Shown here: positions 1,023 through 59,449 of the stretch, piece by piece
Layout of the letters: the number at the start of each line of letters is the position of its first letter
How positions within the stretch are numbered: the first letter of the stretch is position 1
Source: a virus
Lineage: Duplodnaviria; Caudoviricetes
Reading direction: 5' to 3' (one strand)
Virus record (IMG/VR): IMGVR_UViG_3300020202_000084
Coordinates: 1 to 59,449 of that record
DNA length: 59,449 bases
The notes under the pieces: generated by a model
What the model saw: only the letters and a program-made list of their open reading frames with translations
What the model was told of the DNA's origin: nothing
Database searches by the model: none
Made by a program: the position numbers and the translations under genes

Positions 1023-1058
1023 CTATATAGTTAAGACTAACTTTCGTCACTTTGTGAC
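1023..1058 (-). promoter_or_regulatory. phage-sigma promoter motif GTCACA-N12-TTAGTCTTA (antisense orientation)
   Basis: Same motif and 12-nt spacing as at 8890, 17432 and 51695. Confidence 0.6.
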
Positions 1059-3382: not shown

Positions 3383-4037
3383 AAAAGTATTCATCATCAA
3401 TAGCGACGAAGCTACTGATAAGATGTTCCTGAGCATGAAGTGGGAGATAGTGAGCAACCCTACTCAGGCAGACATATTCCAGTTCACTGGCAGTGGTAAC
3501 AGCGATGTTGATCCTGCGCTTTATAATGAGCTGCAACATAAAGCCACTTTCACCGATCCTGGTAGAGACAAGCAGGAAGCCATCTATTACAAGATTGCTA
3601 AGCAGCGTGGCATCCCAATGGCTGGCATCTGCCGGGGTGCTCAGTTCCTTTGCGTCATGAATGGCGGTTGGTGTTGGCAGCATGTCAACAACCACGACAA
3701 CAAAGAGCACTACGTCACTGACTGGGATACAGGGGAGATCTACCTAGCCAACTCAGTGCATCATCAGATGATGCGGCTCCCTCGCAACAGGGCCACCATC
3801 CTTGCTACAGCTGGTGAAGCCACTTGGAAGGAATGGGTGAATAGCAGGGGTAATGAATGCACATTTACCTGCAATCCCAAGCATGTGGCCGATCCGGAGG
3901 TTGTCTTATTTAAGGACACCAAATGTCTGTGTGTGCAGTATCATCCTGAATATTCAGGCTGGAGTGCCTTAGTGTCTCGGTATTTTAACCTGATTGAGCA
4001 ACATCTATTCTCTAAGGAAGAATCATGTGCGGCATAG
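3372..4037 (+). CDS. class I glutamine amidotransferase / peptidase C26 (gamma-glutamyl hydrolase-like)
   Basis: GICRGAQ nucleophile elbow, NSVHHQ, QYHPE triad. Confidence 0.9.
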   Translation: MPAKKVFIINSDEATDKMFLSMKWEIVSNPTQADIFQFTGSGNSDVDPALYNELQHKATFTDPGRDKQEAIYYKIAKQRGIPMAGICRGAQFLCVMNGGWCWQHVNNHDNKEHYVTDWDTGEIYLANSVHHQMMRLPRNRATILATAGEATWKEWVNSRGNECTFTCNPKHVADPEVVLFKDTKCLCVQYHPEYSGWSALVSRYFNLIEQHLFSKEESCAA

Positions 4038-5236
4038 TCGGAGTGCTGGGTAAGATTGGAAAGTCTAGGCTCAGCATGTTTGAGGATATGCTGACGATGG
4101 ATGCAGTGCGGGGGAATGATAGCACTGGAGTGGCTGTCATTAATAAAGAAGATGTTTGGTGGGGCAAGGATGTTGTGCTGCCCAACGGCATCTTTGATTG
4201 GCAGGACTACAAGGATGCCAAGAAGGCCAAGCCCTTTTGCCTGATCGGACACAACAGAGCTGCTACTCGTGGCGCTATTAAGTCCGATAATGCTCATCCG
4301 TTTCAGCACGGACACATTACTCTTGTCCATAACGGCACGTTAGATGCAGCTTGGCGTCTTCCTAATTACTGGAAGTTTGGCACGGATAGTGAAGCTATCG
4401 CCTATGCTATTAGCCAACACGGGATTGAGACGGTGTGGCCTGTCATTGACGGTGCTGCTACCTTGGTATTCTGGGATGACAAAGAGAAATCCCTGAATGT
4501 CATCAGTAACAATAAGAGACCGTTCTTTATGCAGCCATTCCCCGGTTCAACCGGGATTGTGTGGTCTTCTGAGAGATGGACCTTGCTCACCGCCGCTGCA
4601 AGGACAGGAGTGGTGCTGGATAAAACAGAAGAAATATTCACCACTAAGTCAGATGTCTTATATACCTTTCTGTATGATCCCGATACAGACAAACTAAAGT
4701 ATCGGGAGAAGAAGCTGGAGCCTTATAAGGTAGGTAATAGTATCCCTGGATATCAGGCTCATGTTCCTGCATCTTATAAAAAAAAGAAAAAGAAAAGGGC
4801 GAAAAGTGCTACTGCGGATATTATACCGTTCAAGAGTGCGAGAGCATCTGCGGAGGTGTTTGGTAGTGCAGAGTGTTTTGCTGAGTGGCAGCAGCGTCAG
4901 CTAGATAAGGTGCAACCTAAGGACAACGGGACGGACGCGGACTTAGACACCCGCGCTGTGCCCTTTCGCGGTCCATACAAACAAACCGAGAAACCTACTC
5001 GAACGGCTGAAGAGTTTTTTCGGCTATTTGATTTGACAGAACTAAACCCTAAGAGCTGCACTCCAGAGTGGTTTATGGCTGCCTATCCCAATTGCTTTGG
5101 CTGTGACGGTAGCATGGACTATTCAGATTATTTCACTGCAAAGATTATGAGTTCTACTGCTGCTCTATGCAGCGATTGCCAGTGCGATATTTGGGTTACA
5201 TCCGGTATCGACCCTAATAACATCCGACAACACTGA
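4025..5236 (+). CDS. class II (Ntn) glutamine amidotransferase
   Basis: MCGIVG N-terminal Cys, RGNDSTG, GHNRAAT, NAHPF, HNGTL, TDSE. Confidence 0.92.
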   Translation: MCGIVGVLGKIGKSRLSMFEDMLTMDAVRGNDSTGVAVINKEDVWWGKDVVLPNGIFDWQDYKDAKKAKPFCLIGHNRAATRGAIKSDNAHPFQHGHITLVHNGTLDAAWRLPNYWKFGTDSEAIAYAISQHGIETVWPVIDGAATLVFWDDKEKSLNVISNNKRPFFMQPFPGSTGIVWSSERWTLLTAAARTGVVLDKTEEIFTTKSDVLYTFLYDPDTDKLKYREKKLEPYKVGNSIPGYQAHVPASYKKKKKKRAKSATADIIPFKSARASAEVFGSAECFAEWQQRQLDKVQPKDNGTDADLDTRAVPFRGPYKQTEKPTRTAEEFFRLFDLTELNPKSCTPEWFMAAYPNCFGCDGSMDYSDYFTAKIMSSTAALCSDCQCDIWVTSGIDPNNIRQH

Positions 5237-5243
5237 GGTAAGT

Positions 5244-6050
5244 ATGACTCCTGAGCTACTAATCGGAGCGGACCCTGAGCTGTTCCTCCGAGAGAAAGGT
5301 CTATTGGTTTCTGCGCATACTCTTTTGCCAGGCAGTAAGCAGTATCCGCATGAAGTTCCGTTGGGTGCAGTGCAGGTGGATGGAACTGCTGCCGAGTTCA
5401 ACATTACTCCAGCTGCTTGCGAGGACGAATTTGTCCTGCATATTAGTCAAGTGTTGGGCACACTTCAAGAGATGCTTAAGCCGGGGGTAGAATTGGACAT
5501 CTCCCCTGTGGCTGAGTATCCAGAAGAATATATGTCGTCGCTGCCCGGCTATGTAAAGAAGCTGGGCTGTGATCCTGACTTCAATGCATACACCAAGGAT
5601 GCCAATCCAAAGCCGAATGAACACCCAACTATGAGAACTGCCGCTGGTCACATTCATGTTGGCTGGGGTAAAGACCTTGACACTCGGGATTGGAAGCACT
5701 TTGAAGCGTGCTGTGTTCTCGCCAAGCAAATGGACTTCTGGGTAGGTCTGCCTAGCACCATTCTTGATCCAGACACCAAGCGCAAGCAGATGTATGGAAA
5801 GGCAGGAGCCTTCCGTCCTAAGCGCTACGGTATGGAGTATCGAGTAGCCTCTAACTGGTGGCTGAAGGATAGCGGCACCATGAGGCTGGTCTATTCAAAT
5901 ACCAAGTGGGCTTTCAACACACTGAATGACGGCATCATGCTGTGCCAAGAGCATGGAGATGTAGCCCGAGACATCATTAATAATAATCAAGTAGACGAAG
6001 CTAAGAAGCTTTGTGACAAGCTGGATATCCCTTATTGGCCTTTGGTTTAA
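5244..6050 (+). CDS. phiEco32-like COOH-NH2 ligase type 2
   Basis: IGADPELF, QVDGTAAEFNI, GCDPDFNAY, RTAAGHIHVG, YGKAGAFRPK.YGMEYR. Confidence 0.9.
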   Translation: MTPELLIGADPELFLREKGLLVSAHTLLPGSKQYPHEVPLGAVQVDGTAAEFNITPAACEDEFVLHISQVLGTLQEMLKPGVELDISPVAEYPEEYMSSLPGYVKKLGCDPDFNAYTKDANPKPNEHPTMRTAAGHIHVGWGKDLDTRDWKHFEACCVLAKQMDFWVGLPSTILDPDTKRKQMYGKAGAFRPKRYGMEYRVASNWWLKDSGTMRLVYSNTKWAFNTLNDGIMLCQEHGDVARDIINNNQVDEAKKLCDKLDIPYWPLV

Positions 6051-6052
6051 AC

Positions 6053-6670
6053 ATGCGAAACAAGAAGTGGTATAATGCTGGACACGCAGAGAACTATCTG
6101 AGCGGTAGTGTCATCCGGATAGATAATGTCCCTTGTTATGTTTGCAGTGTTGGCGAATCTAAGATGGAGTATTACCCGATTACCGAGAAGAACAATCATC
6201 GGGTTATTGATCTAGACCATCCTGCTATTGATCTAAATCCCATGCCTCTGGGGTTTCTCTCTCTTAGAGAGACTGATAATTTCCACTCTTCCTCCTATCT
6301 TAAGCGTGGTCCGTATCGCCAATGGAAGGTAGGGACAACTGCTCGTAACACCATCTCTGCCAATCCTTTCAAGCACGCGATTAAAAGCAGCCCTATGATG
6401 CAATACATCCTGCGTAGTCAGGAGTTCTGCGATACGGTGGCTGGGAAGTATATCGATCCTGAGCAGGCCCATGCTTTGAGCGCTAAGAACGAGCAGGGAG
6501 CGTTTGCTTTCAGCAGGCGCTTTGCCGTGTTTAAAGACTTTCTCCTATATAAAGACCTGCAAGAGCCTGTCGGAACTGTGAGTAAGGACGGCACTGTCTT
6601 GCTACATGAGGACTTCACTTATTTGACCGATATGTTGAATGAGGATTTAGATGCGTGCGGTCACCATTAA
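6053..6670 (+). CDS. hypothetical protein of the ligase operon
   Basis: ORF coupled between two ligases. Confidence 0.7.
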   Translation: MRNKKWYNAGHAENYLSGSVIRIDNVPCYVCSVGESKMEYYPITEKNNHRVIDLDHPAIDLNPMPLGFLSLRETDNFHSSSYLKRGPYRQWKVGTTARNTISANPFKHAIKSSPMMQYILRSQEFCDTVAGKYIDPEQAHALSAKNEQGAFAFSRRFAVFKDFLLYKDLQEPVGTVSKDGTVLLHEDFTYLTDMLNEDLDACGHH

Positions 6671-7874
6671 AGACCATTATGAGTTGACTCCAGTAGATGG
6701 GGAGATTGGACTAGAGATTGAGATGGAGGGGGGAGTCTCATATCCGGACGGAAGCAAGCCGGTGTCAGATTACTGGGTGGGAAAAGCCGATCCCTCCATG
6801 CAAGGTCCTGGTGTAGAGTATGTTCTAAAACAACCAATTCCTAGGACAGAAGTAAGGCCCGCGCTACTAGCCCTTAAGGGGTTCTGGAAAACTACCAAAG
6901 CTAAGCTTACTCCTACTGACAGAGATGGGGTGCACATCCATTTTAACTGTCAGAACCTAATGCAAGAACAAGTGATGACCTTTATCCTCATGCTTGTGTT
7001 GCTGGAGGATGTGCTGGTCCGATGGTGCGGTGAGAGCAGGGAGGGAAACATCTTCTGTCTCCGCTCCCGAGATGCTGAAGAATTTCTGAGCAGGCTTAGG
7101 GACATCTTGATTAAAAAGACCTTTAGCGGTCTGGACTACGAAGTATTGAAGTATGCCGCCATCAACATTGCTCCGCTCTGCTCGTATGGTTCTGTAGAGA
7201 TACGCTGCATGGAAACACCTAAGGATATTATGCGAGTAGAAACCTGGGTGCGTATCCTGTGCTGTGTCTATGACGCTGCTCTTAAACTCCAGAGCGTGAG
7301 GGATGTAGCTGACCAGCTAGCCTTCTCTCGGGGGGAAGAACTAATCTGGCAAATCTTTGGAGATTTGGCCCCTGAATTGCTGGAGCCTGCTGGTGGTGAA
7401 CTCGATCTGATGCTGATGGAAGGTCGCAGGCGGGTTAAGGAGGTGGTTTATTCCAGCTACATCTATAAAGAGCGCAAGAAGAATAAGACACTTATTGCTC
7501 CGCCCCCTCCGGCCAGGAAGAAAATTAGTAAGTCAGAGGCGCTAGCGGCTTATGGTGGAGGTCTGGTTGCTGGATCAGAAGTATCCCTTTCTTCCGTGGG
7601 TAACTACTTTAGTGAGCTGAACGATACAGAAGTAGTAGAAGTTTCTCCTGACTATGCAGTTGCACCAGGGCACCCGTCATTGGGAGATGTTACCCCTAAC
7701 ATGGATTGGTCTGGTTATGTGCAGATAGCTACTCCTCCTGGGACCACGGTGAAGCTGCTTCAAAGCCAGTGGCATTTTGTGGCAATTTCTAATACCGGGA
7801 AATATTGGGTTTATAGTCAGAAGCCCGATTCGCTCAATATTGTAGAGCAGTTTGGTCAACATGCTTTCGCATAA
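6651..7874 (+). CDS. putative amidoligase (COOH-NH2 ligase fold)
   Basis: IGLEIEME, VEYV, GVHIHFN, KYAAIN, YGSVEIR motifs. Confidence 0.85.
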   Translation: MRAVTIKDHYELTPVDGEIGLEIEMEGGVSYPDGSKPVSDYWVGKADPSMQGPGVEYVLKQPIPRTEVRPALLALKGFWKTTKAKLTPTDRDGVHIHFNCQNLMQEQVMTFILMLVLLEDVLVRWCGESREGNIFCLRSRDAEEFLSRLRDILIKKTFSGLDYEVLKYAAINIAPLCSYGSVEIRCMETPKDIMRVETWVRILCCVYDAALKLQSVRDVADQLAFSRGEELIWQIFGDLAPELLEPAGGELDLMLMEGRRRVKEVVYSSYIYKERKKNKTLIAPPPPARKKISKSEALAAYGGGLVAGSEVSLSSVGNYFSELNDTEVVEVSPDYAVAPGHPSLGDVTPNMDWSGYVQIATPPGTTVKLLQSQWHFVAISNTGKYWVYSQKPDSLNIVEQFGQHAFA

Positions 7875-7884
7875 GGACACTCTA

Positions 7885-8706
7885 ATGAAGGCTTATCTGT
7901 TCCGTCCTGAAGATATGGGCAAGAAGAGTTGCGAGGGCATCGCTAAGTATTCCAAGACCGGAATCTTTGTGGTGCAGAGCCAGCACGACAGGCATCCTGA
8001 AGAACCTCATCTGTGTATCCGATATGGCTGCCGATCGAGAGTGCCTCAGGGAAGGAATGTTCTGAATAAGCTGGGTAACATGGACAGCACTATGAACAAG
8101 GGGGGGTTCAGGAAGAAACTACAGGAGCATGGTCTGTGCCCTCCCAGCTGGGGTAGTAATTGGGGGGCCGCTCCAGAGTTTCCTTGTGTGGTGCGACCAG
8201 GCTTCCATGCCAAGTCCCAGCACTTCTATCTGTGCCACAGCCTAGAGGATATTGCTGGCGCTGCTCGGTATTGTGGGGATGACTTCTATTGCAGTAAGTT
8301 CATCGATAAGAAGGCTGAGTATCGCATCAATGTCCTTCAGGGCCGAGTTCTTTGTGTCATTGAGAAGAGCGCCAAGGATCAGACAGACATCACCTTCTCT
8401 CGGGGAGCTACGGAAATCCTGTATTGGTCGGAATGGCCTATTGCGGGTGTGTCTAAAGCCATTAAAGCTGTAGCTGTTAGCGGACTGGACTTTGCTGGTG
8501 TGGACGTAATCGAGGGTAAGGACGGGGAGTGCTACGTTCTAGAGCTTAATACCTGTCCCTATTTGGAAGGTTCCTATCAGCAACAGTGCTTTGCCAGAGG
8601 TTTTGATTGGGTGGTGGAGAAGGGTAGGGATCACTTCTCTGTCCAGCATACAGAGAGTTGGAAGAATTATATTCATCCGTGTATGTCAGAACTAGCTAGG
8701 GTGTGA
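7885..8706 (+). CDS. ATP-grasp peptide ligase (RimK-like)
   Basis: FPCVVRP, EYRINV, DFAGVDV, YVLELNTCP. Confidence 0.88.
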   Translation: MKAYLFRPEDMGKKSCEGIAKYSKTGIFVVQSQHDRHPEEPHLCIRYGCRSRVPQGRNVLNKLGNMDSTMNKGGFRKKLQEHGLCPPSWGSNWGAAPEFPCVVRPGFHAKSQHFYLCHSLEDIAGAARYCGDDFYCSKFIDKKAEYRINVLQGRVLCVIEKSAKDQTDITFSRGATEILYWSEWPIAGVSKAIKAVAVSGLDFAGVDVIEGKDGECYVLELNTCPYLEGSYQQQCFARGFDWVVEKGRDHFSVQHTESWKNYIHPCMSELARV

Positions 8707-8889: not shown

Positions 8890-8928
8890 GTCACAGTCCC
8901 CTACAATTTAATCTTTAGTCTTATATAG
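8890..8928 (+). promoter_or_regulatory. phage-sigma promoter motif
   Basis: GTCACA-N12-TTAATCTTT overlapping TTAGTCTTATATAG; AT-rich upstream tract. Confidence 0.6.
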
Positions 8929-8939
8929 GAGAAGTCTCT

Positions 8940-9290
8940 ATGATTAGAGCGCTGCTGTTGATTGCTGCTGCCTTGGGTTTAATGTGGTGGCTGGGGAGTG
9001 TTGCTAAGGCAGAAGAATTGCCGCCTGCTATGCACTCTAAACCGTTTCCATTGCCGTGCTTTACGTCCGACATAAGCAAAGAACTGGAGACATACGAAAT
9101 AGTATTCGAGGGAGTATTGCAAGGGATGACTTTGTATTCCCTATATGTCCGGGATGATGGCAAGTTCATTATGACTATGCGGACCACCATATTCCCCGAT
9201 GTTTGCGTTGTGGCCGCTGGTGACCAACACAATCTAATTGGCATTGTTGCTCCAAATACTGAACCCGAACAACCGGAGAGTGGCTCATGA
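8940..9290 (+). CDS. secreted/periplasmic protein
   Basis: Signal peptide ending AKA|EE; two Cys. Confidence 0.7.
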   Translation: MIRALLLIAAALGLMWWLGSVAKAEELPPAMHSKPFPLPCFTSDISKELETYEIVFEGVLQGMTLYSLYVRDDGKFIMTMRTTIFPDVCVVAAGDQHNLIGIVAPNTEPEQPESGS

Positions 9291-9658
9291 TCGGAAGGTT
9301 TATCGTTCTCAACACTATCGGAGCGGGCCTGCTGGTAGCTGCTTATTTTCTAGGCATCCTCCCGCAACTACTATCAGTGGACAAGTGGTTCGCCATGCCA
9401 GGTATGGGTGTTGTAACGCTCGTAGGGCTGGTGCTGGTGGCTCGTAAGCGCCTTGATGACGCCGAGTGGCTCCACAATCACATGCCCCTCCTTGGCCTTC
9501 TATTGACCGTTCTGGGCACTGTTGTGGGAGCCATTCATTTTCGCACTACGGGGGACTACAAGGCATTCCAGATGGATGTCATTACGGCCATGCTGGGAAC
9601 TCTCTCGGGGATGCTCAGCTATCTCTGGCTCAATCTTAACTTAAAGGTGCTGAGATGA
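9287..9658 (+). CDS. MotA/TolQ/ExbB-like membrane protein
   Basis: Four hydrophobic segments; PLLGLLLTVLG and AMLGTLSG resemble the LGLLGTVxG / ALxxTxxG channel helices. Confidence 0.6.
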   Translation: MIGRFIVLNTIGAGLLVAAYFLGILPQLLSVDKWFAMPGMGVVTLVGLVLVARKRLDDAEWLHNHMPLLGLLLTVLGTVVGAIHFRTTGDYKAFQMDVITAMLGTLSGMLSYLWLNLNLKVLR

Positions 9659-9744
9659 TGAGTGTCTGGGTTTTAGTTGGTTTACTAGTTATTGCCGTTT
9701 TTCTTTTAGTCGCGTTGCCGCTTTATCTAGGATTGAGAAAATGA
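9655..9744 (+). CDS. 29-aa single-pass membrane peptide
   Basis: MMSVWVLVGLLVIAVFLLVALPLYLGLRK; ATGA overlaps with both neighbours. Confidence 0.65.
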   Translation: MMSVWVLVGLLVIAVFLLVALPLYLGLRK

Positions 9745-10322
9745 AACTCTGGTCCCCACAGGCCATTGCTACAATCGACATGCTCTATTGCCTAGTGGCT
9801 GGGCTAATTGTGCTGATGGCGGAGCCCTCTCCTAAGATTGCCGCCGCAGACAAGCCCATCTGTCAGCTGGCTGTGGATGTTAGCTGGCCCAATGGAACTC
9901 CGGTGGATGTAGACCTGTGGGTGAGGGCACCTAGTGACAAACCTGTTGGGTATTCCGCCAAGGATGGGGCTGTCTTTAATCTGGTGAGGGATGATCTTGG
10001 GACTATTTACACGGCTGACGAAAGCAACTCTGAGAGAGCTTGTGCTCGCTTCCTTGCTGATGGCGAGTGGGTTGTTAATCTGCATCTATACAATTCCGGG
10101 ATTGATCCCCCTATTCCGGTGGATATTACCGTTTCCCTTGTTGATCCATCGGCAGCTACCATGACCCCTATCTTAGAACGTCATGTAGTCCTCCAGAAGA
10201 AGGGGCAGGAACTTACTGTAATAAGGTGGAAGATGAAGGACGGGAGAGTAGTGTCCGGTAGTGAACACGATATCCCTGTGCCATTGCGGCATGGGAGTAA
10301 TAATCCAGGAGTGCACCCATGA
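9741..10322 (+). CDS. MotB/ExbD-like single-TM protein with YfaP/DUF2135-like periplasmic domain
   Basis: TM helix starting with Asp (TIDML); VSWP...DVDLWVRAP, RDDLG, NxE, GEWVVNLHLY. Confidence 0.6.
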   Translation: MKLWSPQAIATIDMLYCLVAGLIVLMAEPSPKIAAADKPICQLAVDVSWPNGTPVDVDLWVRAPSDKPVGYSAKDGAVFNLVRDDLGTIYTADESNSERACARFLADGEWVVNLHLYNSGIDPPIPVDITVSLVDPSAATMTPILERHVVLQKKGQELTVIRWKMKDGRVVSGSEHDIPVPLRHGSNNPGVHP

Positions 10323-10365
10323 CCACGCAAGAGGATGCCTTGCTGCCGTGCCATAGGAGGATGAG

Positions 10366-10548
10366 ATGAAACACGCTGTTCACCGCACCAGTCCGAAGGG
10401 GCCTGGCCAGAAGTTCATCGGCCGATGTGTCAACTGCGGGATGCAGAACCTACCAGCATCGGCGGCGCTTGAGGACTGTCCGAACTTGCGCGGCGTCACT
10501 CAGGATGAGGCGCTGATCGAGGCTATCACCGGAGAGACCCATGAGTGA
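10366..10548 (+). CDS. small Cys-containing hypothetical protein
   Basis: SD GGAGG; CxxC. Confidence 0.6.
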   Translation: MKHAVHRTSPKGPGQKFIGRCVNCGMQNLPASAALEDCPNLRGVTQDEALIEAITGETHE

Positions 10549-11215
10549 TGGGCTTCTGGCGTGTCCCTGCTGCGGAGAGCCTGATTGTTTCACAGATATG
10601 GCTGAAGCTGTTGCCGCATGGAATAGTCGCGTCACCCCGCCAGTCGGACAGGCGGCGGATGTGGAGCGGCTACCGGAATGGCAGCGCGATTTTGTCCGAA
10701 GACTGCAGAATATTTCGGACGCTGGATTGAAGATAACGCAGTCCGAGGCTCGCATGCTGCTGGCGATTATGCAGTCTGCCCTCGCCCCCACACCCCAGGC
10801 TCCCGCATCGCAGGAGGTGGAAAAGATGGTGACGGCGCTTGAGCACATTTACAAAAACCACTGTGCCAGTAGGTGTCTCATAGAAGCCGCCACGATGCTG
10901 CGCCGCCTCGATGCGGAGCGTGGTGAGTTGTTGGCGGAATGCCAAGCTGTGGGAGCACATAACATGGAGCAGGCCATAACCATAGCTAACCTCACCGCCC
11001 AGCTGCGGGCCGCGTCTCAGGCTGACGTGCGGAGCGCGCTGGAACCGTTGCTTACGCAGGTCGAAGAAGAAGAGAATCGTGTTTGGGCGCGGCGCTATGA
11101 TGAACCACAGGACGCAGAAACGCTATTCGTCAAACTTACATGGGAACAGGTTAATACGATCAAAGCCGCCCTATCCACCCTCCCAACAGCCGCAGCCGTG
11201 GAGAAGAAGTCGTGA
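10541..11215 (+). CDS. mosaic protein with Lar-like N-terminus
   Basis: LLACPCCG...EAVAAWNSR resembles Lar (restriction alleviation) family ends; GC-rich. Confidence 0.5.
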   Translation: MSDGLLACPCCGEPDCFTDMAEAVAAWNSRVTPPVGQAADVERLPEWQRDFVRRLQNISDAGLKITQSEARMLLAIMQSALAPTPQAPASQEVEKMVTALEHIYKNHCASRCLIEAATMLRRLDAERGELLAECQAVGAHNMEQAITIANLTAQLRAASQADVRSALEPLLTQVEEEENRVWARRYDEPQDAETLFVKLTWEQVNTIKAALSTLPTAAAVEKKS

Positions 11216-11640
11216 CCCTTTCCATCCTCGCCTTCATACTTGCTGTAGTTCTTCTCGGTATTCACACCTTTGTTGTTCTCCCTACCCATGGATGGAGGAA
11301 ATATGCTGGTTCTATCGGCTTCAGTATTGTTTGCCTCTCTGCTCTATTTGGTTTTTCACAAACACTTGGGAGCTGTCTCCCTGAATTTGCAGCCAAAGGC
11401 ACTAAGATGGATGTGCTGGCTATTCTTTATGATCAACCTAATCATATTTATCTATGGGGTATTGATGGGAATAGTCCAAAGTGTGTAGCTCTCCCTTGGA
11501 ATGAAGAGCAGGCTATCCAGATCAGAGGCCATGAAGGGGACGGGGAGCAACTAGAATATGTCTGGGGAGATGGCCCAGAGAGTGAAGGGGCGGTGCATCC
11601 CAAGCCGCAGGAAGCTTTGCCACCGAAGGATATGCAATGA
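11212..11640 (+). CDS. membrane protein, probable third partner of the MotA/MotB-like module
   Basis: Two TM helices; IYLW...P..V.LPW motif. Confidence 0.55.
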   Translation: MTLSILAFILAVVLLGIHTFVVLPTHGWRKYAGSIGFSIVCLSALFGFSQTLGSCLPEFAAKGTKMDVLAILYDQPNHIYLWGIDGNSPKCVALPWNEEQAIQIRGHEGDGEQLEYVWGDGPESEGAVHPKPQEALPPKDMQ

Positions 11641-11831
11641 ATCGATTACCAGAAGAGCCTACTAAGAGGATGATCTTGGCAGGAGAAACAGAGTTAGAGA
11701 ACTGTATGGATACAGACTACGACTCCTGTGAGGATGGGGGTTGTTATCAATATACTACTGTGCACAGCGATGCGCCAGCTAAGATATGGCGAGCAATGGT
11801 GAAGGCTTGGCAGGAAGAGTGTGACGAATGA
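11637..11831 (+). CDS. hypothetical protein
   Basis: Coupled ORF, P.EPT..M..AG motif. Confidence 0.6.
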   Translation: MNRLPEEPTKRMILAGETELENCMDTDYDSCEDGGCYQYTTVHSDAPAKIWRAMVKAWQEECDE

Positions 11832-12313: not shown

Positions 12314-13978
12314 TTGGGAAGTTGCGTGGAGAAGTTGCCGCATAAGACGGCGACTTGCGATAGCAGCGATGCGCTGCAAGTGTTTGTAGAGGACGGGAAG
12401 TATACTGGTTATTGTTTTAGTTGCCACACCTACGTGCCCGATCCTTATGGGGGCAATCCCCCCAAATCTCTCCCCCCTAAGATCACTAAGACGCCAGAGC
12501 AGATTGAGGCAGAGCTTCAAGAAATCGATGAGCTAGTTGCTGTTGATCTTCCTGACCGTGTTCTCCGTAAAGAAACCCTAGACTATTTCGGTATTAAGGT
12601 AGCTGTCTCAGAAGAGGACGGTAAGACACCTACTGCCCACTTCTATCCCTACACCAAGCAGGGTAAGAGGGTGGGATATAAGGGCCGAGTAGTGGAGACA
12701 AAACAGTTCTTCGCTGTTGGCAACACTAAGGGCGACGTGGACCTGTTCGGTTGGCAGCAGGCTATTGCCTCTGGAGCAAAACGACTCATCATCACAGAAG
12801 GAGAGTTGGATGCCCCGTCAGTCTTCCAAGCCCTCAAAGACAAGAATCGAAATACTCAATATGCTGATCGTAACCCAGCCGTTGTGTCACTCATCAATGG
12901 TAGCGGGAGTGCAGGCAAGGCTCTTGCAGATAAAGCAGCAGAAATCAGGGCGCACTTTGAAGAAGTAATTCTCGCCTTCGATATGGACAAGCCAGGTAAG
13001 GAAGCTACCACAGCTGCCCTGCTGTCTTATCCCACAGCCAAGTCTGTTGTCCTTCCTGATCATGACCCTAACAAGTGTTTGCAAGAGGGCAAGGCATTGG
13101 CTCTGGCTAATGCTGTATTGTTCCGAGCAGACGCTCCGAAGAACACTAGGCTGGTCTGGGGGCCTACACTTTACGCCGAGGCTAAGAAGCCTGCTGAATG
13201 GGGCCTGTCATATCCTTGGCCTACTCTCACTAGGCTCACCCGAGGGATGCGTTACGGAGAAACGCACTATTGGGGCGCTGGTGTGAAGATGGGGAAGTCC
13301 ACACTAGTGGACGAATTGGCTGCCCACTTCATGATGGAGCATGGACTGCGAGTGTTCCTCGCTAAGCCCGAAGAAGCCAACCCCAAGACAGTCAAGAAGA
13401 TACTCGGCACTGTCGCTAGCCGGGTGTTCCATGATCCTACTGTAGAGTTTGACCATGAGGCATACGATGAAGCAGCCAAGAAGGTTGGAGACAAGCTGTG
13501 TATGCTGTCTCTCTATCAGCAACTTGATTGGCAGATACTCAGACAAGATATCGTCGCAGCAGTCAATGCCGGATGCAAAGTTGTCTTTATTGATCCCATT
13601 ACCAACCTCACGAATGGCATCTCAGCAGGAGAGGCAAATACGGAATTGCAAGGTATTGCTCAGGACTTGTCCGCGCTGTCTATGGACCTTAACTTTGCCG
13701 CGCATATCTTCTGCCACTTGAAGGCCCCTACCTCTGGCGACCCTCATGAGCGTGGAGGGGAAGTGCTTTCCAATCAGTTTGCTGGCAGCCGTGCCATGAT
13801 GCGCTCATGCAATTACATGATTGGCATGGAAGGCAACAAGCATCCTAACTTGACCGAGGAAGAGCGCAACTGTCGTGACCTTGTCATTCTGGAGGATAGA
13901 GAATTTGGGGCTAGTGGCAAGGTGCCTCTCTATTATAACCCAAAGACTGGAAGATTGTTAGAACGACCGGAGGGATAG
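12314..13978 (+). CDS. T7-like DNA primase-helicase
   Basis: N-terminal Zn finger (CFSC), TOPRIM ITEGELD and FDMD, Walker A GAGVKMGKST, FIDPIT; TTG start with SD AAGGA. Confidence 0.95.
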   Translation: MGSCVEKLPHKTATCDSSDALQVFVEDGKYTGYCFSCHTYVPDPYGGNPPKSLPPKITKTPEQIEAELQEIDELVAVDLPDRVLRKETLDYFGIKVAVSEEDGKTPTAHFYPYTKQGKRVGYKGRVVETKQFFAVGNTKGDVDLFGWQQAIASGAKRLIITEGELDAPSVFQALKDKNRNTQYADRNPAVVSLINGSGSAGKALADKAAEIRAHFEEVILAFDMDKPGKEATTAALLSYPTAKSVVLPDHDPNKCLQEGKALALANAVLFRADAPKNTRLVWGPTLYAEAKKPAEWGLSYPWPTLTRLTRGMRYGETHYWGAGVKMGKSTLVDELAAHFMMEHGLRVFLAKPEEANPKTVKKILGTVASRVFHDPTVEFDHEAYDEAAKKVGDKLCMLSLYQQLDWQILRQDIVAAVNAGCKVVFIDPITNLTNGISAGEANTELQGIAQDLSALSMDLNFAAHIFCHLKAPTSGDPHERGGEVLSNQFAGSRAMMRSCNYMIGMEGNKHPNLTEEERNCRDLVILEDREFGASGKVPLYYNPKTGRLLERPEG

Positions 13979-17431: not shown

Positions 17432-17467
17432 GTCACAATACCCCTCAATTTAGTCTTATACTATATG
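17432..17467 (+). promoter_or_regulatory. phage-sigma promoter motif
   Basis: GTCACA-N12-TTAGTCTTA-TACTATATG immediately before SD AAGGAG. Confidence 0.65.
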
Positions 17468-31600: not shown

Positions 31601-32127
31601 GGAACAAGAGTTCCGCCAAAGGTAATACCCGTCTCAGGATCATAGGTTCCGCCAATTTGTTTATAACCAGGCTTAGTCTCATCAATAAGACCCATCTCTA
31701 CTCCAGCCTGCCCTAGACCGCTAGCAACGCTGCGAGCGGCCGCAGGGAAGAGACGAAAGAAACTATCCACACCAGCAGCGAGAGGACGAATAAGTCCCTC
31801 ATTAAAGGCACGCTGAGGCTCATAAAGATTAGGTCCGCTCTGCGAGAACAAGCCAACGTCCTTCAGAGCTTTCACACTCTCATCTGACAAACCCAGAGGC
31901 TCTGTGCCCCAGCCTTCAGCAGCCCCTTGACCGAAAGCATCTAGAATGCGTCCGACAGAAGTAGAGGACAGGAGTTGCTCTTGCGGAGTCATAGGCACAG
32001 CACCGCCCTTACCGCCAACCCATTTGACTGGCAGCTTAGCTGGAGCTTCCTCTTCGACAGGAATAGCTTGACTACGCCAGTTAGCAGTAGTCTCAGGGAT
32101 TGCTGTTTGACGCCAGTTATCAGTCAT
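28615..32127 (-). CDS. large internal virion/ejection protein (gp16-like)
   Basis: 1170 aa helical protein, PFIRTPINL, QPYSIK.G; position after the ejection genes. Confidence 0.75.
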   Translation of the reverse strand: MTDNWRQTAIPETTANWRSQAIPVEEEAPAKLPVKWVGGKGGAVPMTPQEQLLSSTSVGRILDAFGQGAAEGWGTEPLGLSDESVKALKDVGLFSQSGPNLYEPQRAFNEGLIRPLAAGVDSFFRLFPAAARSVASGLGQAGVEMGLIDETKPGYKQIGGTYDPETGITFGGTLVPTEYKSHDKERFVASVEEFINIGGIVAMGEPAFMGTGINTAKAQKSTQAIREVVEPQAKTPDPIAVPEAPGTNVIDLNTKLDALADERYALETSGASVSDPLVKALHSATSSSGVLGGGMTLVETKAAVVWARANGRDDIADAILARAEKQAARSKLDKPGVAEDHPRYKEIEENLKKNSDETQQQLEELREVAGERKIIFSDKAPAQPIPPKPIGISPEFVKADGVTVDTAKIQELKDVYSAIEELSQANPGVAPLATRGKVTWAETEAAALDAGVPPEMLFKRAIGEAWNSTQLEGARNLLKQGAKELIEASRKARATGSDADTMAAVEAWHKAALYNEAVTGAKTEAGRALNILKKHKQEMEELDQLTKALDTLGGKANVDEIMEALRKMDNAEPGQINKLVHDLSKPGAVDMALEYVYNAMLSGPTTHMANIIGNTVAQLWRVAETGVAGAIGAGRAAMGSKTALAGDRVYMGESGAKLYGMIQGLPEGLKAAVNTLRTGDPSTVSKLETKRLRKVTLPDGKTIEVPVENRKSIPDIKVEGKTIPFGSAVRLPGTALMMEDEIFQAMAYRANLQALAYRSASKKGLKGQDFADHVAKLVNNPTKQMMEAARAEADYVTFTKELGKTGKQLQRLGERHPILKAWIAPFIRTPINLIKFPLERTILAPMHKEIYDKLRGKHGAAVRDETYAKIVLGTAITMGAYMAAASGRMTGSGPDDPTERAAWMLGGGNQPYSIKVGDYWVPYGRVEPIATLLGISADFAYMQDKLTADESAEIATLIAYSASQNISNKTFLKGLTDATDAFINNPERFMQNYLENLSTRPVPAALGQYTRAEDPYLRDARTILEAYKTRLPGKSTEVYPYRDIFGNAITRDSKLLPNLIRSDPVAKELYALNAWPAKVDKKIRGVELTRKQEDDYRRVAGRLVYMQLKTLFSAPGWSQLPEGVRAEVAKSRIDQARETARTYIMWQYANTPDDIMRQAMKLKRKQLLGE

Positions 32128-33743
32128 TAGGGTTTAGTATATACCTTACCGTTTTCGTCTTTGAACTTAGCCCCCTTAGGGAGCTTGGCGAAATCTTCAT
32201 CAGTGACAATCACCGGCAACTCATCGCTCTGTGGGACAGCCCTAGCTCCGGGGCCACCAGGTGTAGCCTCATCAGCCTCCATAAATTCGCCCCCGACACT
32301 GTCATCCATAACATCCTTGATGACCTGATCGGGAGAACGCTTAAGCTGATTAATTATCTTGCCTACATAATTGGGATTATCCGGGTCTGTCATCTCGTAT
32401 GCTGACAGGCCCTTCTTTTTACCCTCATCAAAAGCTTTCAGGATATTATTATAAGCCCGAGTAAGAAGCTCTTGGCCCTTAGGGTCCTTCCATCCCAGCA
32501 TTTCATTCTCTGCTAGAAGCGTTCCCTTAGCGGCATCTAGGACACGCTGAAGCATGTCATTATCGGCCTTACCCTCAGGAGTTCCGTTCTTGATAACTTC
32601 TTGGCGCAACTGTTCCCAGTCACTAAACTTCATTTCCCGCTGAAGCGGAATTAGTTCATGCCAATCCGTAATCTTATCTGGATGACCTTCTGGATAGTGG
32701 ATGCGAGCAAAGGCATTATTCCAAGTAACGTGATTGGTAGTAGGCTCTTTATTAGCCCTAGCTTCCAAAGCATTCGCTAGAGCAAGCTTACTTTGGCCAT
32801 CTAAGCGACTATCCATAGCAATGGCCTTAGGATCGGCAGAGCCAGTTAGAATAGCCGTAGCGTGTTCCGTAAAAGCTGCTTTATCTAAATCCGCTAGGGC
32901 TTGTCTGCGCTCAGCTTCAGCCAAACGCTTCTCTACTTCCTCGGCCTTCTTTGCCTGCTTAATGTCCTGCTCAATCTCAATACGCAGGTCACCGTCAATC
33001 ATATCCTTGGTCTTGGCATATATCGCCTCTCCAGAGGCAGCATCGGTCAAGAGCGCATGATTGATGCGGGCACGAGCAGCCTTACTAATGGCCTTCTGGG
33101 TTTCCGTATTAATCGTCTCTTGCGACCAACCCTGCTCATCGCCTAGAGAGGCTACCTCATAGGCAATCCTATCTACTGCACCTTCCCACTTATTATCATC
33201 GCTGAAGTAGGTAGCAGCCTGCTGTTGGGCTTCTTCAATAGACGCCTGAGCGCTGAGGATATTTGCTTCTCTACGCTGAGCAATGGTGTAGCGATCCACT
33301 TGCTCCAGTTCACCTTGCAGGCTGGCATTAGAAGAAAGATCAAACGCTTCCTTAACTCGGCTGTTACCAGCCTTACCGAGTAATTGAGAGCGCGCCTTGT
33401 TAAGAGCCTCTTCTACACCCTTACGGTTATTAAGAGTATCCTCTCCCGAAGTGGAATAGAACCCTGGCTTATTGGGAGTGCCATCACCGAAGAGAATTTC
33501 CCTACGCTTTTTGGACCACTCTACTTCAAGGTTCTTTACGGCACGCTCTTCATCTTTTAGCTGCTCTTCATAGAGCGCATTGGAGGCTGCCTGTAGCCCT
33601 CTAGCAATGTCGTCATAACCATCCCCAACCGCTGCTGCACCGCGCCTGGTGAGGCTGATACCGGCAGAAGGATCGAAGGACGCCATACGTCGGGTAGGAC
33701 GGGGAACAGCACGCTCCCCGAGAGTAGACGGCATACGTGCCAT
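32127..33743 (-). CDS. internal virion/ejection protein (gp15-like)
   Basis: Helical protein, T7-like gene order. Confidence 0.65.
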   Translation of the reverse strand: MARMPSTLGERAVPRPTRRMASFDPSAGISLTRRGAAAVGDGYDDIARGLQAASNALYEEQLKDEERAVKNLEVEWSKKRREILFGDGTPNKPGFYSTSGEDTLNNRKGVEEALNKARSQLLGKAGNSRVKEAFDLSSNASLQGELEQVDRYTIAQRREANILSAQASIEEAQQQAATYFSDDNKWEGAVDRIAYEVASLGDEQGWSQETINTETQKAISKAARARINHALLTDAASGEAIYAKTKDMIDGDLRIEIEQDIKQAKKAEEVEKRLAEAERRQALADLDKAAFTEHATAILTGSADPKAIAMDSRLDGQSKLALANALEARANKEPTTNHVTWNNAFARIHYPEGHPDKITDWHELIPLQREMKFSDWEQLRQEVIKNGTPEGKADNDMLQRVLDAAKGTLLAENEMLGWKDPKGQELLTRAYNNILKAFDEGKKKGLSAYEMTDPDNPNYVGKIINQLKRSPDQVIKDVMDDSVGGEFMEADEATPGGPGARAVPQSDELPVIVTDEDFAKLPKGAKFKDENGKVYTKP

Positions 33744-51660: not shown

Positions 51661-51695
51661 ATATAGATTAAGACTAAAAGTAGGTGGTTTGTGAC
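51661..51695 (-). promoter_or_regulatory. phage-sigma (late) promoter
   Basis: GTCACA-N12-TTAGTCTTA-ATCTATAT heading the whole - strand arm; AT-rich UP tract. Confidence 0.7.
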
Positions 51696-59222: not shown

Positions 59223-59449
59223 TGTTTGTCGTGTGGTTCATAGAGCAAAACAGTTGGCTGAAGTATAGAGAATACTCCAAACTAGATAACGCTTTAGATG
59301 CTGCGAAATTGGACGCACTCTATGGCACGTCAGATCGAGTCATTGTTACTAATTCTAAAACTACGCCTCCAGATTTTCTTAACGCTGGCGAGTTGTTGGT
59401 TAAGTTCTGTGCAGAGGAGATGAGAGATGCTGCGAGACAACAAAGGGAA
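59222..59449 (+). CDS. hypothetical protein spanning the circular junction (continues 128-172)
   Basis: SD GGAGG, open frame through the overlap to TAA at 170-172. Confidence 0.6.
   Translation, partial: MFVVWFIEQNSWLKYREYSKLDNALDAAKLDALYGTSDRVIVTNSKTTPPDFLNAGELLVKFCAEEMRDAARQQRE
59323..59449. repeat. 127-bp terminal direct repeat, copy 2
   Basis: Identical to 1-127. Confidence 0.9.

Follow-up and report, generated by a model that had tools for sequence, protein, structure and literature searches.

A phage-encoded three-gene module related to the MotA/ExbB/TolQ/ZorA motors and its possible action on the host envelope

Can a virus carry an ion-driven motor of its own? Motors of the 5:2 kind are known from only a few systems, i.e., flagella, Ton, Tol, gliding and type IX secretion (T9SS), and Zorya, and each further one has shown another way to deliver membrane energy to the cell envelope. 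The question is raised by the IMG/VR virus record IMGVR_UViG_3300020202_000084, a complete soil phage genome of 59,449 bp that we analyzed over its whole length and refer to as the window. A first-pass annotation of this DNA had proposed a MotA/ExbB-like ion-motor module in its early part. Eight open reading frames (ORFs) on the plus strand span positions 8940–11831 in the window's ORF list, which confirms the positions given in that annotation, and three of the eight, here called subunits A, B, and C, make up a conserved module:

9287–9658, plus strand: subunit A (123 amino acids, aa), a predicted minimal four-helix protein of the MotA/ExbB/TolQ/ZorA superfamily
9741–10322, plus strand: subunit B (193 aa), with a predicted single N-in transmembrane (TM) helix that holds D13, a linker, and a periplasmic beta-sandwich
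11212–11640, plus strand: subunit C (142 aa), with two predicted TM helices, a periplasmic beta-barrel at residues 65–130, and an IYLW..(L)PW motif

We consider it probable that the phage thereby encodes a complete, streamlined three-subunit inner-membrane machine of the MotA/ExbB/TolQ/ZorA motor class, which may act on the host envelope. This motor reading is supported by homology between proteins, and two points carry it: A is homologous to the motor class with the signature residues intact, and it is obligatorily linked to B and C.

The linkage emerged from a comparison of 128 loci, i.e., 80 bacterial loci, 44 loci from IMG/VR, 2 loci of named phages, and 2 self copies of the window. The bacterial loci are the best 80 of at least 523 confirmed B places in a scan of species-representative genomes and belong mostly to Alphaproteobacteria, some to Gammaproteobacteria, and the rest to other groups. 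In 126 of the 128 loci (79/80 bacterial, 2/2 named-phage, and 43/44 IMG/VR loci), the gene immediately upstream of B on its strand is an A-family ORF; only L045 and L099 deviate, and L099 is located at the end of a contig. C-family ORFs are present in 121 of the 128 loci and lie directly downstream of B in all 80 bacterial ones, so the two-TM protein with an IYLW..LPW motif that the first-pass annotation had listed turns out to be a genuine third subunit. Seven loci are without C, and the majority of these end shortly past B. Viral loci can hold inserted ORFs of up to 1.3 kb between B and C, and these amount to 890 nucleotides (nt) in the window; the gene list drawn up earlier needs one correction, namely that the module is interrupted by two unrelated ORFs. 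One IMG/VR lineage has C ca. 2.4 kb upstream of B, before a protease gene (L091:877-1245, L096:2129-2500).

Beyond A, B, and C, no neighbor recurs in over 16 of the 80 bacterial loci; the clusters ranking next consist of antisense ORFs that overlap the module itself. A–B–C is an autonomous operon in the bacterial genomes that the search covered. The synteny check of the motor claim thus came out in its favor, with the same linkage recurring across more than 120 loci. Profiles built from bacterial sequences only match exactly A (E 7.6e-8), B (E 9.6e-50), and C (E 3.1e-10) as their sole matches among the window's 430 ORFs that reach 40 aa or more, and the resemblance is therefore not due to chance.

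What kind of protein is subunit A? Its hydropathy profile has three segments over the threshold and a fourth, amphipathic one (ca. residues 97–119) below it. While an indexed protein search returned only four close relatives of the window's A, an exhaustive HMMER search with a profile of A relatives yielded 111 cluster representatives at E≤0.001, mostly of 120–140 aa, and 87 of them entered the family alignment; the rest, for the most part partial matches or rows among the weakest, were left out. It is via such profiles that the window's A joins the PF01618 family. This family is matched by 62 of the 87 aligned members at E≤0.01 (best 3e-10), and the A protein of a cultured bacterium (L004) reaches 37 bits on it compared to a cut-off of 22.9. 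Run against the Protein Data Bank (PDB), the A family profile obtains 23 matches with E between 1.2e-5 and 2.7e-3, all of which are ZorA, MotA, TolQ, ExbB, or PomA chains and thus A subunits of 5:2 motors with solved structures, before the next matches follow at E 0.3; the alignments cover the two C-terminal helices with the pattern GLxGT...ALxTT. A profile of bacterial A proteins only also matches MotA (8gqy, E 4e-4), and the window's A clade aligns at full length with 25 bacterial A proteins (hhalign 97.1%, E 5.4e-11). The MotA/ExbB likeness that had been suspected for this 123-aa protein is thereby upheld.

The alignment of the window's clade with bacterial A proteins contains a single gap of ca. 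59 residues, which falls into the loop between TM helices 2 and 3. In bacterial A proteins, this loop has a median length of 66 residues, a value found exactly in 62 of 79; in the viral ones (n=45), the median is 16 residues, also the length in the window, with some viral loci intermediate at 40–50. Phage copies of A have lost ca. 50 residues of cytoplasmic loop, and a sizeable cytoplasmic domain for engaging a partner, as in MotA with FliG or in the ExbB/TolQ bundle, is absent from the window's A. Three Stellaceae-like bacterial loci (L027, L064, and L067) have the phage-type loop of 16 residues together with a B that groups with viral B proteins, and these copies may be prophage-borne. Judging by the alignments with the solved proteins, T74 and T105 of A would be the equivalents of the ExbB, TolQ, and MotA threonines. 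The first column is Thr in 79/79 bacterial and 35/45 viral A proteins and the second in 76/79 and 38/45, respectively; the window keeps both.

In subunit B, hydropathy predicts one TM segment at residues 8–26 that contains D13, and the signal peptide, the TM counts, and the Asp in a single TM helix described in the first-pass annotation agree with our hydropathy analysis. An Asp at the N-terminal (cytoplasmic) edge of this helix is found in 245 of 248 homologs with a usable N-terminus, so the intramembrane Asp on which the motor claim had leaned is conserved; the count sets aside three sequences, one lacking the DVDLW motif and two with N-termini that are too short. The three exceptions without Asp look like mis-called starts because their sequences begin inside the TM segment. 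D13 is invariant in all 27 aligned sequences from the window's relatives (48–77% identity), and so is a pair of cysteines, C41 and C101, which is absent from the aligned bacterial members and possibly forms a clade-specific periplasmic disulfide.

An AlphaFold model of B from a 31-row alignment (predicted local distance difference test, pLDDT, 88.6) shows a helix at residues 6–26, a low-confidence linker, and an eight-stranded beta-sandwich at 43–166. Structural comparison places TerD first (Z 8.6 and 8.5; for the former, a root-mean-square deviation of 4.4 with 136 residues aligned), followed by the C-terminal beta-jelly-roll domains of subtilisin-type proteases at Z of ca. 5.5, while Foldseek gives one match at E≤0.001 and then weak TerD-like rows. 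The sandwich carries the invariant acidic motifs DVDLW, RDD.G, and N.E, and these, taken with the resemblance to TerD, point to a possible metal site. The first-pass annotation had called this domain YfaP-like, a label that is weakly supported: DUF2135 (PF09906) is matched by 4 of 31 B members with a best E of 7.9e-4, which is below the 22-bit cut-off of Pfam, window B has no match to it, and the best fold match is TerD, although one Atlas structural neighbor cluster of B does carry DUF2135. The ExbD/TolR (PF02472) and OmpA-like (PF00691) domains have no match in the 31 B members even at E≤10. Predicting a complex of four A subunits with two copies of B(1–45) gave a score of 0.29 versus a mark of 0.32, which counts neither for nor against binding.

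For subunit C, a model from a 39-row alignment (pLDDT 86.8) predicts a pair of TM helices as well as a small beta-barrel that includes one helix (residues 65–130). By the positive-inside rule, the basic residues between the helices would keep the interhelix loop on the cytoplasmic side, with the barrel facing the periplasm. The tail is proline-rich and ends in a conserved PQP..PPK (PQ..LPPK) motif. A wide structural search with C matched helical hairpins to residues 1–54 and scarcely probed the barrel.

Which of the known systems does the module come closest to? In outline, it resembles a Ton/Tol-type energizer (ExbB-ExbD-TonB, TolQ-TolR-TolA) with three inner-membrane proteins encoded together: like ExbB and TolQ, A belongs in PF01618 with the two pore-helix motifs; like ExbD and TolR, B spans the membrane once, N-in, and has its Asp close to the cytoplasmic side; and like TonB and TolA, C would be membrane-anchored with a proline-rich periplasmic part, with an output expected in the periplasm. 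However, A has four TM helices, a phage loop of 16 residues, and no large cytoplasmic domain, the periplasmic domain of B is a TerD-like beta-sandwich instead of the ExbD/TolR fold, and C joins two TM helices to a small beta-barrel without a TonB/TolA C-terminal domain; moreover, no TonB-dependent receptor or Pal/TolB partner is linked to A–B–C. With MotA-MotB and PomA-PomB, the module shares a four-TM A of the same helix order and the Asp-bearing helix of B, and the A family profile matches the solved MotA 8gqy at E 2.4e-5. Unlike these proteins, A has no torque-generating cytoplasmic domain and B has neither a plug nor an OmpA-like peptidoglycan-binding domain, and no flagellar genes are nearby.

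The best match of the A family profile is ZorA (8qyy, E 1.2e-5), bacterial A proteins have weak ZorA matches in NCBIfam and PADLOC, and, as for Zorya, a context of conflict with phages is conceivable. Yet the long ZorA tail and the ZorC, ZorD, or ZorE effectors are missing, B is not ZorB-like, and the cellular operon is near-universal in one order, unlike the patchy Zorya defense island. An assignment to the Zorya-type defense systems was rejected given an A of only 123 aa, no PADLOC model matched by the window's A, B, or C, and no conserved neighbors beyond the module. The module's proteins from the window find no significant family in Pfam, PHROGs, NCBIfam, or PADLOC. On the features compared, A–B–C falls outside the ExbD/TolR, MotB, and Zorya families, and it is best described as an apparently novel variant of the 5:2-motor kind that phages have captured and miniaturized.

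The first-pass annotation knew of no characterized phage example. The literature agrees: a full-text search (with supplementary files outside its reach) found no description of the A–B–C module or of a phage-encoded MotA/ExbB homolog, and MotAB relatives have been classified in a study (PMC12505986) which, in the portion considered here, mentions phages only regarding Zorya. Uncharacterized copies do exist in sequenced cultured phages, e.g., as p038, p040, and p042 of phage 16-3, annotated only as pNNN or hypothetical. This phage is a cultured and long-studied temperate phage of Rhizobium. Its A aligns with that of the window at hhalign 98.8% (E 1e-16), its B shares 37% identity (E 3e-26), and its C is found by BLASTP at E 0.005 and by profile at E 9.7e-36. 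The 16-3 locus differs in that genes for a trypsin-like protease and for a 44-aa product come before A and the subunits have other small ORFs between them, and its B belongs to another viral clade than the window's.

How widespread is the module, and how did it reach the phages? A word-indexed protein search found 157 relatives of B at E≤0.01, some of them from large bacterial contigs and none with any Pfam domain. B is present in 90/101 genomes sampled from the order of a Geminicoccaceae metagenome-assembled genome (MAG), in 30/101 genomes of the Denitrobaculum order, and in 1/151 of the Meinhardsimonia order, where many of the genomes counted are incomplete MAGs and one positive in each of the first two orders is flagged as unpublished (G332, G165). 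Some bacterial genomes hold two to six B-like genes (L014, L017, L037, and L079; G003–G005, G323, G349, and others), and a second copy can sit within a few kb of the first. Cultured carriers include Azospirillum and Denitrobaculum strains. Among viruses, B occurs in 44 IMG/VR loci and in 17 of 50,697 GenBank phage records, all of which are Rhizobium or Sinorhizobium phages including 16-3; no Rhizobium or Sinorhizobium genome is among the best 80 bacterial loci. Megablast of the module region against the phage records gave no match.

In a quick, unrooted maximum-likelihood tree of 155 B sequences with long branches, which left out the window duplicate L001 and ORFs without DVDLW and in which N-termini were trimmed to 58 residues before the motif, the window falls into a clade of 31 rows (29 metagenomic proteins, several of them from contigs of ca. 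58–59 kb, the window, and one IMG/VR row) with a value of 97 in the Shimodaira-Hasegawa-like approximate likelihood ratio test (SH-aLRT). The rhizobiophage B proteins form a separate clade of 21 rows (SH-aLRT 99), and two more IMG/VR clades as well as several single viral rows nest among bacteria. The starred branches of the tree force at least six changes of IMG/VR label. Because the tree is unrooted with long branches, we limit the claim to several exchanges between bacteria and phages and long retention in phages, leaving aside the direction of each. The module itself appears to be cellular in origin and near-universal in one alphaproteobacterial order.

Where does it sit in this phage? Exact direct terminal repeats of 127 bp (1–127 and 59323–59449) are consistent with a complete linear genome. 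Among the sequencing runs listed, just two contain this DNA in full; both are soil-metagenome DNA runs, possibly the source of the record, and no RNA run is among them. Early/middle functions including a DNA polymerase gene occupy the plus strand at ca. 1–27 kb, while the structural and lysis genes are on the minus strand, and the A–B–C region is placed between a block of amidoligase genes and the primase-helicase gene. A role as a lysis cassette was rejected for this module in the plus-strand early/middle block, far from the endolysin-like gene at 32127–33743 on the minus strand. The surrounding features are as follows:

1032–1058, minus strand; 17432–17458, plus strand; 51669–51695, minus strand: three copies of the motif GTCACA-N12-TTAGTCTTA
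4025–8706, plus strand: peptide-ligase gene set (glutamine amidotransferase, COOH-NH2 ligase, amidoligase, and RimK-like ATP-grasp) by PHROG matches
8890–8923, plus strand: bipartite promoter-like motif GTCACA-N19-TTAGTCTTA, 17 nt before the first ATG of the operon and within a 75-nt gap
8940–9290, plus strand: 116-aa protein that opens the coupled run, its N-terminus resembling a Sec-type signal that ends in AKA|EE
9655–9744, plus strand: 29-aa hydrophobic ORF with one TM segment, joined to A at its start and to B at its end by ATGA overlaps
10366–10548, plus strand: 60-aa ORF with a CxxC motif, inserted between B and C
10541–11215, plus strand: 224-aa ORF inserted between B and C, with a zinc-ribbon-like CPCCG...C start
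11637–11831, plus strand: 64-aa ORF coupled to the end of C
12314–13978, plus strand: T7-gp4-like primase-helicase

All junctions of the run at 8940–11831 are 4-nt ATGA or GTGA overlaps except 10322/10366, and each start is preceded by a GGAG/AGGA-like site resembling a ribosome-binding site; across the run, except at that junction, the genes are evidently translationally coupled. Where a promoter had been postulated ahead of them, there is a recurring promoter-like element: the bipartite motif GTCACA-N12(19)-TTAGTCTTA has four copies in the genome compared to none in 100 shuffles and can therefore be regarded as real, with a putative promoter function. It is probably a genome-specific class of phage promoter or operator, and the spacer of the copy before 8940 exceeds that of the remaining three by 7 nt.

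The five additional ORFs of the run (of 116, 29, 60, 224, and 64 aa) do not appear to be conserved parts of A–B–C, since clustering of the viral loci turned up no equivalents in the other 46, which also leaves the secreted protein and the 29-aa peptide unsupported as parts of the device as it was first conceived. The 116-aa protein belongs to no Pfam, PHROG, NCBIfam, or PADLOC family, and no family was matched by the 60-aa and 224-aa ORFs with their cysteine motifs, of which the latter's CPCCG...C start presumably resembles Lar-type zinc ribbons. Unrelated small hydrophobic ORFs occupy the A–B junction in three other loci (L087, L102, and L104), which suggests that the 29-aa ORF may be a real small membrane protein. 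A search with the primase-helicase found one relative (L128, 53% identity) without the module, and of two metagenome scans for close relatives the first found none and the second nothing closer than 56% identity. Directly upstream of A, 22 of 47 viral loci encode a trypsin-like protease (Trypsin_2, HtrA/DegP-like; e.g., L096:2500-3603 and L085:2505-3581 among viral loci L082–L126), with a PDZ domain in 2 of 5 such proteases scanned. The window has no trypsin-like protease, and an HtrA-like protease is not among the conserved neighbors of the 80 bacterial loci.

What would such a module do? Solved structures of MotAB, ExbBD, TolQR, and ZorAB provide the basis for a proposed mechanism. By homology, a ring of A subunits would encircle the TM helices of a B dimer, and ions would pass via D13 of B and T74/T105 of A, turning A relative to B. 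Since phage A has almost no cytoplasmic part, the work would be performed within the membrane or on its periplasmic side, by way of B and C. The output might come through the TerD-like and possibly metal-binding beta-sandwich of B or, alternatively, through C with its TM pair, barrel, and proline-rich tail, in a position analogous to that of TonB or TolA. The module would have been captured by phages several times and retained in large phage clades; judging by its position, it would be expressed alongside early/middle genes in the phage studied here, and in other phages it may be coupled to the HtrA-like protease. Most likely it would re-energize or remodel the host envelope during infection, e.g., for the exclusion of rival phages or for a periplasmic process, though its biological role in infection is a guess. 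We can more tentatively imagine, as a prospect that may well not hold, that A–B–C is a new branch of 5:2 rotary motors with the smallest natural rotor subunit known (ca. 120 aa, essentially membrane-only) and new B and C subunits, which phages have repeatedly captured and miniaturized for their own ends in the periplasm, such as driving or placing an HtrA-like protease or keeping rival phages from entering. In that case, it would be the first virus-encoded ion-driven motor.

Several observations weigh against the motor interpretation. By itself, the window's A has no Pfam match even at E≤1. It has Leu at the Gly of GLxGT before T74, a position that is Gly in 79/79 bacterial and 40/45 viral A proteins, and the first Thr column is Asn in 10/45 viral ones. 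B has no ExbD, TolR, or OmpA-type domain and its profile finds no PDB sequence at E≤10, the TerD match at Z 8.6 lies in a range where a match can reflect a common arrangement, and Foldseek with C gives only weak OB-like rows (E≥7e-3). For every A–B–C member, assembly, ion flux, and rotation are predictions, and any benefit to the phage is conjectural.

The best placed of the alternatives, though an unlikely one, is that A and B form a gated proton/ion channel by which the membrane is depolarized or re-set for superinfection exclusion, abortive-infection-like competition, or lysis timing, with the periplasmic domains of B and C sensing disturbance of the envelope. Such a leak could use the same Asp and Thr residues, which serve conduction in all family members, and loss of the ca. 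50 loop residues could remove a regulatory element. The early/middle position of the operon and the best PDB and PADLOC similarities of the A family, i.e., to ZorA of a sensor-type defense system, also speak for it. However, B is near-universal in one order (90/101 genomes) and the module has no conserved effector or defense neighbor, so a housekeeping envelope machine fits better than a suicide or defense channel; furthermore, the window's three proteins match no PADLOC model. An envelope-directed early/middle activity is favored, and the gated leak ranks second.

It is less likely still that the phage supplies extra or shut-off-resistant copies of a host envelope-maintenance machine that keep the cell intact until lysis and have no phage-specific activity. 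The cellular origin and repeated capture of the module as well as the conservation of all three subunits would suit such a replacement. But phage versions are systematically remodeled, with a shortened A loop and the invariant pair C41/C101 specific to the window's B clade, an HtrA-like protease has been added upstream in 22/47 viral loci and is not conserved in the 80 bacterial ones, and rhizobiophages carry the module even though no Rhizobium or Sinorhizobium is among the best 80 bacterial loci.

The first-pass annotation had also offered a dominant-negative decoy, i.e., phage subunits that poison the Ton, Tol, Mot, or Zorya motors of the host or its own A–B–C, and this we regard as quite improbable. 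Phage A is truncated compared to cellular A, as a poison subunit might be, and hosts from the bacterial groups concerned frequently possess the operon in its cellular form. Yet the phage has all three subunits of its own separate system, and neither B nor C has a domain in common with ExbD, TolR, MotB, or ZorB. Three maintained subunits with intact Asp and Thr residues in a clade of 27 sequences at 48–77% identity would be unnecessary for a decoy, which is disfavored precisely because the phage carries a complete, residue-intact set. A host counterpart would also often be lacking since B occurs in only 1/151 genomes of the order of the sole host-like cultured genome tested, and the 17 of 50,697 phage records that hold B are all from Rhizobium or Sinorhizobium phages. 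Finally, a chance resemblance of unrelated small membrane proteins without joint function could appeal to the compositional bias of TM segments and to a window A without a significant Pfam or PHROGs match of its own, but it is already contradicted by three-gene synteny in more than 120 loci and profile E-values down to 1e-50 and can be set aside almost entirely.

A motor encoded by a virus would add a new category to the conflict between phages and their hosts over the envelope. The module also brings into view an uncharacterized cellular system carried by nearly all genomes sampled from one alphaproteobacterial order. With its naturally minimized A of 123 aa, it could become a simple model in which to study how coupling works, and the presence of the module in cultured rhizobiophages including 16-3 offers a tractable entry point for genetics.

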